A DNA stretch of 64,000 bases from a virus (Duplodnaviria; Caudoviricetes), in IMG/VR virus record IMGVR_UViG_3300043821_000026, positions 64,001-128,000 of that record; one strand, 5' to 3'. The notes beneath the pieces are model-generated. The model was not told the origin of the DNA and made no database searches. It worked only from the letters and a program-made list of their open reading frames with translations. A program made the translations under genes and the position numbers. Of the stretch, positions 11,549 through 50,299 are shown in pieces (position 1 is the stretch's first letter; each line of letters opens with the position of its first letter).

Positions 11549-11622
11549 TCCCCCCTGCCGGACTCGAACCAGCAACATTTCGGTCTACAGCCGAATGCTC
11601 TACCAAATTGAGCTAAGAAGGG
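11549..11622 (-). tRNA. trnY: tRNA-Tyr(GTA), archaeal type (C1-G72, short variable loop, CCA not encoded)
   Basis: Cloverleaf CCCTTCT-TA-GCTC...GAGC-A-TTCGG-CTGTAGA-CCGAA...GCTGG-TTCGAGT-CCGGC-AGGGGGG-A. Confidence 0.95.
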
Positions 11623-11625
11623 TTA

Positions 11626-11713
11626 CGCCAGTAACAGGATTTGAACCTGCGATATCGCAATGGATAACAAGATTTCAAGTCTTGCGTCTTTGGCCGAACT
11701 AGACTATACTGGC
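11626..11713 (-). tRNA. trnS: tRNA-Ser(TGA), long variable arm
   Basis: GCCAGTA/TACTGGC acceptor, G73, anticodon arm CAAGA-CTTGAAA-TCTTG, T loop TTCAAAT. Confidence 0.93.
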
Positions 11714-11740
11714 CTATATTTGTCAGTCTATAAATGACAA

Positions 11741-11824
11741 CGCTGATAGCAGGATTCGAACCTGCGAGGTTCTATTGAACCATCAGGGTAGCAACCTGAC
11801 GCCTTACCGCTAGACTATACCAGC
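11741..11824 (-). tRNA. trnS: tRNA-Ser(GCT), long variable arm
   Basis: GCTGGTA/TATCAGC acceptor, G73, anticodon arm TCAGG-TTGCTAC-CCTGA, T loop TTCGAAT. Confidence 0.93.
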
Positions 11825-11827
11825 AAA

Positions 11828-11899
11828 TAGCTCCATCAGGAGTCGAACCTGAATCTACAGGGCCAAAGCCTATAATGATTGCCATTACACCATAGAGCT
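11828..11899 (-). tRNA. trnQ: tRNA-Gln(TTG), archaeal type (A1-U72)
   Basis: AGCTCTA/TGGAGCT acceptor, anticodon arm ATAGG-CTTTGGC-CCTGT, T loop TTCGACT. Confidence 0.93.
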
Positions 11900-11918
11900 A
11901 TAATTAAGGGTTTTTAAT

Positions 11919-12091
11919 AGGTGGACCCTCATAACCACCTTCTCTTTTAGGTGTGAATTTTTACGAACACCATCAAGATTTTACTCTTGAAATATGCAGA
12001 TTTATCATTGACCACTAGTAAGTCTAAAATCTGTGGGGTATTCTCACCAGCTTAAACTATCTTTCAATTGGATTTGAACCAATATCTCCCC
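11919..12091 (-). ncRNA. Structured RNA inside the tRNA operon: circularly permuted tRNA-like elbow (12035-12091) followed by four hairpins
   Basis: GGGG-AGAT-[ATTGG TTCAAAT CCAAT]-TGAAAGA-TA-[GTTT AAGCTGGTGA GAAT]-A-CCCC; hairpins at 11997-12033, 11973-11990, 11950-11971 and 11919-11940. Confidence 0.6.
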
Positions 12092-12094
12092 TAA

Positions 12095-12168
12095 AGGCAT
12101 TAGAGGGAATTGAACCCCCAACCTTAGCTTTACAGGAGCCACGCTCTGCCTAGTTGAGCTATAATGCC
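12095..12168 (-). tRNA. trnT: tRNA-Thr(TGT), atypical (C33, G2-C71)
   Basis: GGCATTA/TAATGCC acceptor, U73, anticodon arm TGGCT-CCTGTAA-AGCTA, T arm GGGGG-TTCAATT-CCCTC. Confidence 0.8.
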
Positions 12169-31667: not shown

Positions 31668-32159
31668 ATGAATGGAATCTATGCTTGGAAAAATATACAA
31701 AACGGTAAAATGTATATTGGACAAACTAAGTATATTGTAGATAGACCTTATGACCATTTTAAATGTTCTACAAGTCATGGTCAAAAATTTGAGAACGCAA
31801 TAAAAAAATATGGAAAAAAAAGTTTTAAATTAATAATTTTAGATAAAAATGTATCAAATTTAAACATTATGGAAAAGCATTATATAAGAGTATATAGCTC
31901 TTATATTAATGGATATAATTCAACATTAGGAGGAAATGGTATATATCCTGATATTATTGAGTGTCCTCATAATATATTATGGAATTGTCGTTATACCCAT
32001 ATAGTTAATAATACAAATTATAATAGAAAAAAAATGTTTAGATTATATTATGGTAATTATTATGTACCTATTGGATATTTTATAGACCCAATAACCACAG
32101 ATATTATTGGAAAACTTATATCCAATTTTTGTGATTCCGATACCAATCAATATACTTGA
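31668..32159 (+). CDS. GIY-YIG endonuclease (putative free-standing homing endonuclease); stop codon supplied by the inserted element
   Basis: 'GIYAW.N..NGK.YIGQT', 'E..YI..Y.S...GYN.T.GG'; own TATA ~25 nt upstream (leaderless); opposite strand to its neighbours. Confidence 0.85.
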   Translation: MNGIYAWKNIQNGKMYIGQTKYIVDRPYDHFKCSTSHGQKFENAIKKYGKKSFKLIILDKNVSNLNIMEKHYIRVYSSYINGYNSTLGGNGIYPDIIECPHNILWNCRYTHIVNNTNYNRKKMFRLYYGNYYVPIGYFIDPITTDIIGKLISNFCDSDTNQYT

Positions 32160-32257
32160 ACTACCACCACTTATAGAAGTGGTGGATTCCTAACTTCGAG
32201 CTGAAAGGCAATCCCCGTCGTCCCAACGGTTCAGAATGTTTATTGCTGCATAAAACT
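32156..32257 (-). mobile_element. IS200/IS605 right-end / TnpB omegaRNA-scaffold mini-element, copy 1
   Basis: Encodes a TnpB-like C-terminus AAINILNRWDDGDCLSARS*, then GAAT-CCACCACTT-CTAT-AAGTGGTGG-TAG-TTCAA; 103/104 identical to 38748-38851. Confidence 0.85.
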
Positions 32258-33029
32258 GAAAATAAAATTATCAAAAAAAGTTCTATATTCATGTTAATAC
32301 CATATCATTATCCTTAAACAATTCTAAAATATACATATCATTGTACTCAAATACTCTAGAAGAGATGGATGAATTATATAACATATATTGTTTATATTTA
32401 TCTCGATTAATATATACCCAATATACTTTATTATCTTCTAAAATATAATAATCTTTATCTTCTATCATTCCTTTTTTATTTAAGAATAATATAATACTAT
32501 CTCTACGCATTTTCTGATAACCTCAAACAGTCATTTTTATATTCACTAATATAAAATACTTTTTCTACTTTATTATCGTTATATAAAATAAAAGAATCTA
32601 TATCGTATTCATCATAAATTCCATATACTACACCATTTTTATATAACACAAATGACCCACCATCTAAATCTAAATCATCAAATTCCATATCCTTTACTCG
32701 ATTAGTAATTACATCATTAGTATCAGGATAATATGTTCCAACTTTAAAATAATCAAAAGGTGTTTCATAAATATCTTTAAATAAATCCTTTAAACTCATA
32801 TCTTAAACCTCATAAATTAATCCTACTTTTTGAAGTATTAGATGTATATGAATTATAATCTTTAGACTTAAATTCTTTCAATCTTGCATCTAATAATTCG
32901 ATTAATGTTTGAATTTTTGTATCAACTCTTCCTTTTTCTATATATTGTTCTAATGCTTGATTATATATATCTATACGAAATTTTTTAACTTCACTTTCTG
33001 TCATTGTATCTATAATATCCGACATCATA

Positions 33030-33431
33030 TTATTCACCTTTAAAAGTTCCATGTTCTTTTTCGTGACAATCCCGACATAAAACAGTAACATTATTTATAT
33101 TATATTTTTCTTCAGGATAAATTTTTTTACTTTTTAAATGATGTATACTTAAATCATCTGTAGCACCACATTTTTGACAATGACATTTACCATTAACGTT
33201 ATATTTTGCATAAACACTACTATTAAAACTTTTTGTAACAATTGTTCCAGTTGTACCTATATCCTGTTCAGAACAATATTTAAAAACATCACTCATTTTT
33301 GATATTCGTACACCATATTTCTGTGATAAAATTTTAACTAACTCATGATAAAGATAATTATATCCTGTATCAGGATTATCTGAATTAACAACATTCCATA
33401 ATTTTTCCTTATTCATTATATAATACTCCAT
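33030..33431 (-). CDS. HNH endonuclease
   Basis: 'CQKCG....L.IHHL......P.......N...LCRDCH...H'. Confidence 0.85.
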   Translation of the reverse strand: MEYYIMNKEKLWNVVNSDNPDTGYNYLYHELVKILSQKYGVRISKMSDVFKYCSEQDIGTTGTIVTKSFNSSVYAKYNVNGKCHCQKCGATDDLSIHHLKSKKIYPEEKYNINNVTVLCRDCHEKEHGTFKGE

Positions 33432-37722: not shown

Positions 37723-38199
37723 CTATTGCTCTGTTGCTTTTATCTCGTAATTCCATTCAAAATCCTCCATATTCATTTCTTTTAATATATCATCAATAAT
37801 ACTCATTAATTGAGATTTATTTTCTGCTTCAATATCTAATACAGTAGATAATCGTACTGAATATTTACGTGTAGGTATTGGTGTATTGATAAAATCCCAT
37901 AAAGTATCTGGATTAACGTTATTATTAATATCATATTTTTGATGATATTCTGTATGACATTTATGACATAATGTAATACCACTATCAATATTTAATCTAT
38001 ACTCTTCAAAGTTTTCATATGGAAACATATGATGAGCTTCAGGCCTAGAAGTGGACCCACATTTTTGACAAGTGTGATTATCTCGTGCTATAACTGATTG
38101 TCTAAAAAAGGTCATATAATCACTATTTCTTAAAGTTCTTTTGTTATTTTTACATAACTGATTAAATTTTTTTACTTTTTTTGGAACAGCAGGGGACAT
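37723..38199 (-). CDS. HNH endonuclease
   Basis: 'RD..TCQKCG.....EAHH...........GITLC..CH..YH'. Confidence 0.88.
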   Translation of the reverse strand: MSPAVPKKVKKFNQLCKNNKRTLRNSDYMTFFRQSVIARDNHTCQKCGSTSRPEAHHMFPYENFEEYRLNIDSGITLCHKCHTEYHQKYDINNNVNPDTLWDFINTPIPTRKYSVRLSTVLDIEAENKSQLMSIIDDILKEMNMEDFEWNYEIKATEQ

Positions 38200-38543: not shown

Positions 38544-38945
38544 TTAATATGTTTTAATTTTATGCAAAGTAGAGTTAATTAAATCAATGCTATCTTTTAC
38601 ATCTTCATTTATATGAAAGCTATCATCGATTATATGAATAGTAAAATAGTCTTCAAAATTCCCATCAACATAGGAATTTTTTTCCCAAATGTTTCTGCAC
38701 CTATCATTGATTTTTTGTTTTAATTTTGAAGTTGGTTTTACATTTGTTTGAACTACCACCACTTATAGAAGTGGTGGATTCCTAACTTCGAGCTGAAAGG
38801 CAATCCCCGTCGTCCCAACGGTTCAGAATGTTTATTGCTGCGTAAAACTGATAATTTCATCACTTGTTAAAATACCCCACATTGTAAAATGGTTTTTTTT
38901 AATTGTTTGAATTATCAATCTATTTAAACTATCATTACTAATCAT
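38544..38945 (-). pseudogene. Hypothetical gene interrupted by mini-element copy 2
   Basis: GGAGTG RBS and MISNDSL...SDEII upstream, TNVKPTS... downstream; removing 102 bp restores one continuous frame. Confidence 0.7.
38748..38849 (-). mobile_element. IS200/IS605 right-end / TnpB omegaRNA-scaffold mini-element, copy 2
   Basis: Near-identical to copy 1, with unrelated flanks. Confidence 0.85.
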
Positions 38946-39069
38946 TCAATCACTCCTTATTTGTACTGAAAATTTGAAACAGTACTTATTTAAAGAGATA
39001 TATACACAAAACCGACAAGTGTAAAGAAATGAAACACCTGCCTAAATAATTGTATACATATCAATCTAT

Positions 39070-48400: not shown

Positions 48401-49513
48401 TTCATGGTGTACTCAACACCATTCATTGTTCCTACTTTTAAATTCACCATATTTTCACCTCATATTGTATATAAAAATATCATTATATTTATAACTAATG
48501 ATATAAATAATGCAGATACTAAGTAAGTATAAACTTTATCATATTTTTTAAATGGACAATTTTCATTTAATGAATGATAATCATATAATACTGCTTCTAG
48601 TTCAGTACATATAAAAGTTCTCTCATTATGGTTCTTTGATTTACAATTTGGACATTCATCACATTTATATATATTAACTTTAACCATCATTTTCCCCCAA
48701 CTTATTACCAACTAAACCTAACTCTTTTCTAACACACATTTTAACAAATTCTGTTTGATTGACATTATCTTTTTTAATTCTTTCTTTAAGTTTTTGATAT
48801 TCTTCATCATTAACAAAACAGGTTAATGGATTTGTTGGTCTATGTTTTGAGCAATACATTGATAAACCATTTCCTTTATAAATTTTACAACCACATACTA
48901 TACATTCATTTATCATTTCATCACCTTCATTAATATTATCTAAAGGACAGAAATTTGGAAAACTATTTCTATCCTTAATCTTTTTTTGATTTAAATCACA
49001 TACATATTGATTTCCATCATATAAAACCTCATACATACAGTCAATACAACCATGTTCTATTATTTCAGTCATTATCTTCATCTATTACACTCTCCAAAGG
49101 GCATGAGTCAGGAAAATCTTTATTATTATATGCTATTTCTTCATAAACAAATTTTCCCGTTTTCATACACTCTCCACAATTTCCATCATACCAAAGACAA
49201 TAGAAACATTTTTCAATCAATTCATCAACAAAAAATCGTCGCATTTATATACTACCTCTTTTGCCTAATCTTTATACATTACTGAAAAATATAAAATATT
49301 ATCTATGGGAATAATATATTTCTTTTGATATTTAATATCGGAATATTCGTTCGGCTTCTTTGAAATCATTATATTATCTACATCAAAAAGACCAACATCA
49401 TCTTCAAGTTCAATTTTAATTGCTCTATTATCAATGCAGAAAATAGTGATACTATCTGCAACTTCAGTTTTTCTAAAATATTGAATATCTTTTAAATTAA
49501 TCATTTAATCACC

Positions 49514-50005
49514 TCATATTGCTATTGGATAAATTGGTAAAGGACACCATTCAGGTACTTCATTATATGGATTTTCAATATGAGAAGTTTCCTTTGTTGC
49601 TATACAATCCATATAATTAGAATGTTCGTTTAAAAAACAACATTGACTACAATGAGATACTGGCATCATTCTTTTTGGTTTATCAAAATCTACTCCTTCT
49701 TTTTTTAATGCTTCAATTAATACATATCGTACTAATTCTGTTTTTTTTAATTTTACCCCATTATATTTTTGAATATTATCTAAAATAATCCATCTATAAT
49801 ATGGGACTCTAAGTGTATATTGGGTTCGACCTCTTAAATACTGCATTTTAGGAGTATCTGTGATATAGTTTTCTTTAATATAATTAAAGATTATTTTATT
49901 AAGATAACTATGTTTTGTCATTCCTTCTTCTTCTGCCTTCTTTTCAATAACTTTCATCTCTTGATTAGAAAGCATTACACCGATAGTTATATATCTTCTT
50001 TGCAT
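49514..50005 (-). CDS. Tandem ribbon-helix-helix-like regulator fused to a Cys module
   Basis: Two 'strand-helix-..S/T.L.R' units followed by CSQC...C...WCPL; similar RHH pattern in 60058-60357 and at the end of 48680-49081. Confidence 0.5.
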   Translation of the reverse strand: MQRRYITIGVMLSNQEMKVIEKKAEEEGMTKHSYLNKIIFNYIKENYITDTPKMQYLRGRTQYTLRVPYYRWIILDNIQKYNGVKLKKTELVRYVLIEALKKEGVDFDKPKRMMPVSHCSQCCFLNEHSNYMDCIATKETSHIENPYNEVPEWCPLPIYPIAI

Positions 50006-50299
50006 AAAATCACCTCTATATATACTATTCTTTTAATACTATATAAATGTATTGATTATTCTTTTATCCATATTTCGTCTTGCAACATTAAAATAAAACC
50101 ATTCATAACATGAAATTCTTTATAGCTGTATCCATGTTCCTCCATATAATTTAATGCTAATTTTCCTTCTTTAAAGAATGGATATAATCTATCACTTTCA
50201 CCAATCTCTAACCCATCGAAAATTTTTTTTCGCACTCTCTAATATTTTACTAAATACTTCAGGATTTTGAAGTTTATCTTCACTAATCATTTCATCACC

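Follow-up and report, generated by a model that had tools for sequence, protein, structure and literature searches.

How does a virus come to carry the guide-RNA end of a TnpB transposon unaccompanied by the transposase and nuclease genes, and could such an end still act as a guide? The question is raised by two nearly identical 102-nt units (mini-elements, or minis) within the stretch of DNA analysed here, a 64,000-nt window that corresponds to bases 64001-128000 of a 138.5-kb IMG/VR virus record (G000, ~25% G+C) from a probable Methanobrevibacter virus. The minis are very probably deletion remnants, devoid of a left end (LE), of an IS200/IS605-family (IS608-type) insertion sequence (IS) that circulates in Methanobrevibacter and its viruses, and an intact tnpA-tnpB pair of the parental type lies elsewhere in the same viral genome. 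This origin, combined with a trans-acting role of the minis as guide RNAs (omegaRNAs) for the virus's own TnpB, is the reading developed below, and the whole package is given a probability of about 0.5.

Anatomy of the minis and their parent in the same genome

The two units and their parts, with positions in the window, are as follows.

32156..32257 (minus strand): mini-element copy 1 (102 nt), made up of 8 nt AGTTTTAT, the last 19 tnpB codons and a right end (RE) finishing in TAGTTCAA
38748..38849 (minus strand): mini-element copy 2 (102 nt), sitting 3' of TTATC within a gene
32214..32228 (minus strand): hairpin A, CCGTTG-GGA-CGACGG, proposed first stem of the omegaRNA scaffold, overlapping the TnpB codons N-R-W-D-D-G
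32164..32185 (minus strand): right-end subterminal hairpin CCACCACTT-CTAT-AAGTGGTGG, with GAAT on its 5' side and TAGTTCAA on its 3' side
32136..32155 (minus strand): guide-position flank of copy 1, GTATATTGATTGGTATCGGA, placed by its position relative to the right end
38728..38747 (minus strand): guide-position flank of copy 2, ACAAATGTAAAACCAACTTC, the 3' flank of that copy

The copies agree at 101 of 102 positions, the sole difference being T/C at position 8, and their 34-nt right-end core is found in the window at these two places only, compared with zero expected occurrences in shuffles. Read 5' to 3' on the minus strand, each unit comprises AGTTTTAY, the 19 codons AAINILNRWDDGDCLSARS and a stop codon, GGAAT, the hairpin CCACCACTT-CTAT-AAGTGGTGG, and TAGTTCAA; the frame AAINILNRWDDGDCLSARS matches the C-terminus of a 379-aa TnpB encoded in the same virus. 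At the IS608 right end, GAAT and TCAA are the guide (GR) and cleavage (CR) tetranucleotides (PMC5934647), and the minis have a right end of the same type, GGAAT-CCACCACTTCTATAAGTGGTGG-TAGTTCAA, with a covarying hairpin. The initial annotation had described ~19 tnpB codons, a CCGTTG/CGACGG hairpin and a GAAT-hairpin-TTCAA right end, co-oriented with viral transcription; its description is accurate because GAAT and TCAA are the IS608 right-end tetranucleotides, and the codons, frame and hairpins were found in both copies, each of which lies on the sense strand of viral transcription. It also stands that the 64-kb window contains no tnpA, tnpB or LE-type hairpin: the units themselves have no tnpA and no left-end subterminal hairpin with its guide GL, and only the RE palindrome is present.

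In the whole record, a third match to the unit (G000 50162-50268, plus strand) forms the 3' end of a tnpA-tnpB unit.

G000 48678-50260 (plus strand): tnpA and tnpB of the viral parent copy, 13.7 kb before the window start

Its tnpA encodes a protein of 134 aa that spans the whole Y1_Tnp profile, and its tnpB (G000 49087-50226) one of 379 aa with HTH_OrfB, OrfB_IS605 and Cas12f1-like TNB domains. Residues 3-366 of this TnpB align with ISDra2 TnpB (8h1j/8bf8; E 2e-30), and the motifs GFDLN, IVIEN and DRDINAAINIL, together with a CxxC..CxxC zinc finger, give three RuvC motifs with an intact D-E-D triad. Over the last 94 nt, from GCAGCAATAAAC to TTCAA, both minis are 100% identical to the parent copy, from which they are separated by 46 and 52 kb. 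The initial annotation had supposed that the minis borrow TnpA and TnpB from the host, but an intact pair identical over these 94 nt is present in the virus, and borrowing is unnecessary because the partner genes sit in the same genome.

Both open reading frames of the parent copy are intact, yet its 5' end lacks the initial 70-80 nt of the IS, a stretch that contains the left-end hairpin; it looks like a stranded or domesticated copy. It lies between tail-fibre-like genes (G000 48635-50260; L007:1428-3053). No LE hairpin was detected anywhere in the 138.5-kb record, and therefore canonical TnpA activity cannot move any of the three units. With a covariance model made from 19 copies, only these three units were recovered in the virus and no further diverged ones. 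Their 3' flanks are all different, and the minis occupy the position of an omegaRNA gene, identical to that of the 3' end of the in-genome tnpB and overlapping the right end.

Probable origin of the minis from a complete insertion sequence

Sibling contigs of the copy-1 locus, which were reached via a neighbouring 73-aa gene, include both occupied and unoccupied states of the site. In L083, a complete 1,695-nt IS with LE hairpin, tnpA and tnpB lies between the 73-aa gene and a GIY-YIG gene, at essentially the copy-1 site; it follows TTATC, begins with ATAAATCGCAAAAGAATA and the hairpin CCTCCACC..GGTGGAGG, ends in TAGTTCAA, and shares 99.7% identity with the parent copy of this virus along 1,626 nt. 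The parental IS200/IS605 element that the initial annotation looked for is thus available both within the virus and as a complete IS in this sibling, and the empty sites it also sought are provided by L084 and L085. Its interpretation of the minis as a minimal guide-only parasite or tool gives way to that of a deletion remnant, given the complete IS that L083 carries at the copy-1 site.

The left flank of copy 1 is homologous to L084 and L085 through TTTTC and then over 7 of 8 nt (AGTTTTAT here, AATTTTAT in the sibling), where the similarity ends. The first 8 nt of copy 1 are therefore most simply explained as viral flank of this locus, and TTTTC is probably plain flank left by the deletion, not a transposon-associated motif (TAM). 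Copy 1 probably formed in place, through a deletion extending from 45 nt upstream of the left end through the LE and tnpA as far as codon 361 of tnpB. On its right side, copy 1 also shows a 12-nt deletion and a 4-nt difference relative to the siblings, details that this account does not cover. Two other readings of the 5' end were rejected. In one, AGTTTTAY would be the tip of a left end fused to tnpB through YGCA microhomology; in the other, the T/C difference would mean that two deletions had occurred independently. In both cases the reason is that the complete IS (L083, L064) starts with ATAAATCGCA, and the 8 nt align with the L084/L085 flank.

The gene next to copy 1 was little altered.

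31668..32159 (plus strand): GIY-YIG homing-endonuclease-like gene, 163 aa (Pfam PF01541, E 2.9e-9), convergent with copy 1

Its stop codon, TGA, comes from the complement of the element's terminal TTCAA/G, and without the insertion the frame would extend 12 codons further. The product has 163 aa compared with 164 aa in the element-free siblings, from which it differs only in the last two residues and the stop codon, which does not bear out the suggestion that the element truncates the gene. At the unoccupied site, L084:440-460 and L085:530-550 read GCTTAT/ATTG, without the C of the TTATC that precedes the IS in L083 (987-993), and L084 matches the guide-position flank of L083 at 20/20 positions, without the TAM. 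This allele could be a TAM-escape allele or a mere indel.

Copy 2 has interrupted a gene.

38544..38950 (minus strand): 99-aa gene split by copy 2, with its N-terminal 32 codons upstream and a conserved 67-aa C-terminal part downstream of the element

Exact removal of the 102 nt joins ...GAAATTATC to ACAAATG... at codon 32 and restores the 99-aa reading frame with its ATG start. A homologue on a metagenome contig (P0002) is uninterrupted, with 117 aa, a C-terminal part 87% identical to that here, and ATTATC at the corresponding place. Copy 2 begins immediately 3' of TTATC, has its other end precisely at TTCAA and is not flanked by a target duplication; it is a true insertion. In the interrupted gene, the only in-frame starts for the 67-aa part are GTG GTG within the right-end hairpin (window 38748-38762, minus strand), since the insertion has left that part with no ATG. 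In a further sibling contig, L086, similarity to this genome breaks off 30 nt upstream of copy 2 and gives way to unmatched sequence starting TTATCAGATATTCC.

Because it carries the same 8 nt resembling the locus-1 flank, copy 2 was probably derived from copy 1 as a secondary copy. One possible route starts from a full IS once inserted at the TTATC of locus 2, which would have undergone gene conversion via the 94-nt right-end homology and ATTxTC-A microhomology; in another, TnpA would have acted in a non-canonical way and cleaved after TTTTC, a sequence resembling TTATC. An RNA-mediated (retro) origin was rejected, as no copy carries donor-flank sequence 3' of TTCAA.

The wider IS family is consistent with the host lineage guessed in the initial annotation. 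TnpB relatives occur at 66-67% identity in two Methanobrevibacter metagenome-assembled genomes and at 83% in another viral contig (G001), and right-end matches were found in 32 of 103 Methanobrevibacter species genomes, with several IS subfamilies having in common the right-end hairpin, TAGTTCAA and a three-hairpin layout over the last 75-105 nt. The flanks of G001 have no DNA similarity to this virus, hence no empty site could be obtained from that contig. Complete left ends read TTATC, TTATGATGCAAAAGAATA and hairpin CTACCACTTCTCTGAAGTGGTAG in three host copies, and TTATC, ATAAATCGCAAAAGAATA and hairpin CCTCCACCTCTACAGGTGGAGG in two viral contigs (L064, L083), with GCAAAAGAATA directly before the hairpin in the complete relatives. 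TTATC adjoins all complete left ends and is therefore the target, and presumably also the TAM; we infer that AAAAG in the left end obeys the CL/GL pairing rule of IS608 once that rule is lengthened by one base. When the left flanks of the minis are compared as TAM candidates, as had been proposed, TTATC of copy 2 equals the target beside the complete left ends, whereas TTTTC of copy 1 does not qualify if, as is probable, it is plain flank.

Remnants of the same family occur elsewhere in viruses and hosts. RE-anchored, 5'-truncated copies include one of ~129 nt on metagenome contig L065, one of ~130-135 nt in L086 (2430-2558) upstream of a helicase operon, with another at the contig start (1-55), and one of ~101 nt in a Methanobrevibacter genome. 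L086 is 99.5% identical to this virus in the helicase region, and its remnants are absent at those places in the present genome. The 5' breakpoints of these copies (near -129, about -135 and about -101) all leave the predicted scaffold core in place, and their clustering just upstream of it hints at selection for the guide module, in a sample biased by RE-based searches. Conversely, L064:3369-3560 (minus strand) is a left-end-only remnant consisting of TTATC, the LE hairpin and the first 14 tnpA codons; on either side of it lies one half of a split DnaE-like polymerase, whose genes are adjacent in this virus. In Methanobrevibacter, L037/L038 (G008:C9, G007:C1), L035 and L033 hold right-end hairpins ending in TAGTTCAA with unrelated AT-rich sequence upstream, and in L038 TTATC lies ~55 nt upstream of the hairpin; these may represent a still smaller class of remnants or minis.

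A scan of a metagenome collection for the right end gave L064 and L065, and a metagenome scan for the mini-specific 5' junction gave no match. Exact-pattern scans of IMG/VR for the right end, both guide flanks and the 5' junction were likewise without matches, and no left end starting GTTTTAYGCA was found in the 103 Methanobrevibacter genomes. Contig-end matches in G081 and G099 were rejected as minis, since they are assembly breaks at a multi-copy IS.

IS remnants and homing-endonuclease genes occupy the same variable regions. HNH-type endonuclease-like reading frames lie near copy 2 (window 37723-38199, minus strand) and downstream of copy 1 (33030-33431, minus strand), and the L065 remnant is also located beside a GIY-YIG gene. 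Elsewhere in the window, a cluster of five tRNA genes (11549-12168, minus strand) scores above the Rfam gathering threshold.

A candidate guide role and its alternatives

TnpB uses right-end transposon RNA to cut the unoccupied site, which promotes retention or homing, and gene-less IS605 derivatives have been proposed to supply omegaRNA in trans (PMC10055086); homing between co-infecting phages has been discussed as a concept (PMC13565253). Whether the minis retain the structure needed for such a role was assessed in an alignment of the 3' ends of 19 related copies. Hairpin A has 3 of 6 pairs changed on both sides, with 95.5% of cells paired, and the right-end hairpin (C) has compensatory changes at 5 of 9 pairs, whereas the alignment of hairpin B is poor. 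Taking all cells together, 90% are paired compared with 23-48% when partners are slid, and none of 500 shuffles reached the observed covariation score. Single-sequence minimum free energy folds were ambiguous (z -0.9 to -2.4) and were not relied on.

In all 19 copies, a conserved GGA, in the loop of hairpin A or in the following GGGGAU, can pair with UUC at -5 to -3, the site that matches that of the ISDra2 pseudoknot. The functional ISDra2 scaffold has 116 nt and starts a few (~5) codons past the NAA(L/I)NI motif, and RNA upstream of the scaffold is dispensable (PMC10097598). When this start is transferred via the protein alignment, the scaffold here begins at hairpin A, 75 nt from the end. 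By homology, we infer that all of the predicted omegaRNA core (~75 nt) is retained in the minis, inside the 94 nt common with the parent, which could allow them to load the viral TnpB in trans. In the proposed mechanism, the virus's own TnpB would bind read-through RNA of the minis and trim it, and the resulting omegaRNAs would take the 3' flanks as guides, such that one TnpB would serve three guide genes. The complexes would then cut DNA carrying TTATC followed by the guide sequence, according to the transposon-homing and competitor-cutting logic of bacterial TnpB. That the minis make omegaRNA that loads TnpB is put forward tentatively, at somewhat less than even odds, and a present-day homing or exclusion benefit to the virus is considered unlikely.

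Several observations weigh against this proposal. A run of seven T and further T-runs lie just upstream of copy 1, and such runs could stop read-through transcription by oligo-T termination, as occurs in archaea. The predicted scaffold measures only 75 nt compared with 116 nt in ISDra2, the GGA:UUC pairing has no informative covariation or both-side changes across the 19 copies, and no Rfam family matches the module. The guides of copies 1 and 2 have no close matches beyond the control level in the 103 host genomes, and the copy 2 guide is unmatched in L077 and L086, which differ 3' of TTATC at locus 2. The copy 1 guide is unmatched in register with a TAM in L084 and L085 because the flank has changed: these siblings differ from it by a 12-nt indel and have no TAM in register. 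The cutting of element-free siblings envisaged in the initial annotation thus finds no support, as the retrieved unoccupied alleles match neither guide next to a TAM. In addition, the close match between minis and parent could simply reflect a recent origin of the remnants.

The main rival reading is that the minis are inert debris: recent IS deletion scars in a virus that sheds DNA rapidly, which would give rise to no stable RNA, bind no TnpB and have disrupted only the 99-aa gene. We regard this alternative as a substantial possibility, a little short of an even chance. It is favoured by the lack of a target for either guide in the 103 host genomes or the retrieved sibling alleles, by the remodelling of the copy 1 guide flank since insertion, by the left-end-only remnant in L064, which indicates decay from both sides, by host right-end hairpins that have no hairpins A and B, and by the different remnants in the near-identical strain L086 (99.5%), a sign of rapid turnover. 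Inert decay accounts less readily for four independent RE-anchored remnants that break at -94 to about -135 of a 1.7-kb element, all just upstream of the scaffold (again an RE-based, biased sample), for the co-orientation of both minis with transcription, or for the intact TnpB partner kept in the same genome. A different possibility is that the unit has been reused as a structural or regulatory DNA or RNA element, such as a transcript-end stabiliser, a terminator, a nicking site for TnpA (HUH) in replication or recombination, or an internal start for the 67-aa product. The hairpins are GC-rich and stable in a 25% GC genome, and copy 2 supplies the only in-frame starts (GTG GTG) for the conserved C-terminal part, but no T-run follows the hairpins, the sequence is fully accounted for as an IS end, positions vary between near-identical strains and there are only two or three copies, which makes such reuse extremely improbable.

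The insertion at locus 2 also brings into consideration a still-mobile miniature transposon, in which TnpA would cut after TTTTC and TTCAA and paste the 102-nt unit 3' of TTATC. The clean placement of copy 2 between TTATC and TTCAA without target duplication, its 8 nt matching the locus-1 flank and starting right after TTTTC, the intact tnpA and the equal orientation of all three units relative to local transcription are consistent with this. However, without the left hairpin and the guide GL, an IS608 element can neither integrate nor be cleaved at its left end (PMC5934647). The unit has neither a left hairpin nor an AAAAG-type guide, and no left hairpin exists anywhere in the genome. Moreover, scans of IMG/VR and the metagenome collection gave no instance of the exact 5' junction, and gene conversion via ATTxTC-A microhomology accounts for the same facts; continued mobility is accordingly unlikely. 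The most far-reaching variant, in which the virus keeps a nuclease-competent TnpB and spreads LE-less omegaRNA cassettes via TnpA at surrogate TTATC-like sites as a multi-guide arsenal against co-infecting siblings, is considered very unlikely.

Significance and comparison with known systems

TnpB is the ancestor of Cas12, and the locus bears on the open question of how a transposon nuclease with one guide gives way to one served by several guides in trans. Here, an archaeal virus holds one intact TnpB and three separate candidate guide-RNA modules, two of them cut to ~100 nt and none canonically mobile, while across sibling genomes one and the same site is seen with the full IS, with a remnant and empty. 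If the minis are expressed and loaded, they would represent natural, trans-acting, fixed omegaRNA genes in a rumen methanogen virus, with a compact scaffold of ~75 nt; if not, they provide a clean example of rapid IS605 decay in large viral genomes. Should the multi-guide arsenal be true, it would constitute a natural intermediate, in an archaeal virus, between a one-guide transposon nuclease and multi-spacer CRISPR-Cas12.

Among known systems, IS608 and ISDra2 are closest in architecture. Like them, the minis have a right end with GAAT 5' of the hairpin, a TCAA cleavage site and a guide position in the 3' flank; their complete relatives insert 3' of a fixed TTATC without duplication and have AAAAG in the LE, and the TnpB is homologous to that of ISDra2 over its full length. 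Unlike them, the minis have no tnpA, no left end and only 19 codons of tnpB, the predicted scaffold has ~75 nt compared with 116 nt, and the carrier is an archaeal virus. The minis resemble the PATEs of Geobacillus stearothermophilus (Meers et al. 2023, PMC10055086) in being gene-less, in keeping the right end and omegaRNA region, and in that they would depend on a TnpB encoded elsewhere. However, PATEs retain the palindromes of both ends, LE and RE, and TnpA can mobilise them, whereas the minis have no LE palindrome and at least one probably formed by a deletion reaching into the flank.

As with TldR, a group of domesticated TnpB relatives that have fixed guide RNAs, the guide-RNA gene would hold a fixed place in the viral genome, outside any mobile transposon, but the TnpB here keeps its nuclease motifs and lies 46-52 kb from the guides, and no conserved target gene is evident. 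The proposed benefit, cutting of co-infecting siblings without insertion, parallels that of free-standing phage homing endonuclease genes (intronless homing, marker exclusion), and the minis have GIY-YIG and HNH genes as neighbours in a variable part of the genome; in contrast to those endonucleases, recognition would be guided by RNA, not by protein, and no cleavage target was identified among those searched. Taken together, the minis are best classed as LE-less deletion derivatives of an IS605-family element that the virus itself carries. They vary the known theme of PATEs, or of guide-only units, in that their partner genes reside in the same genome.

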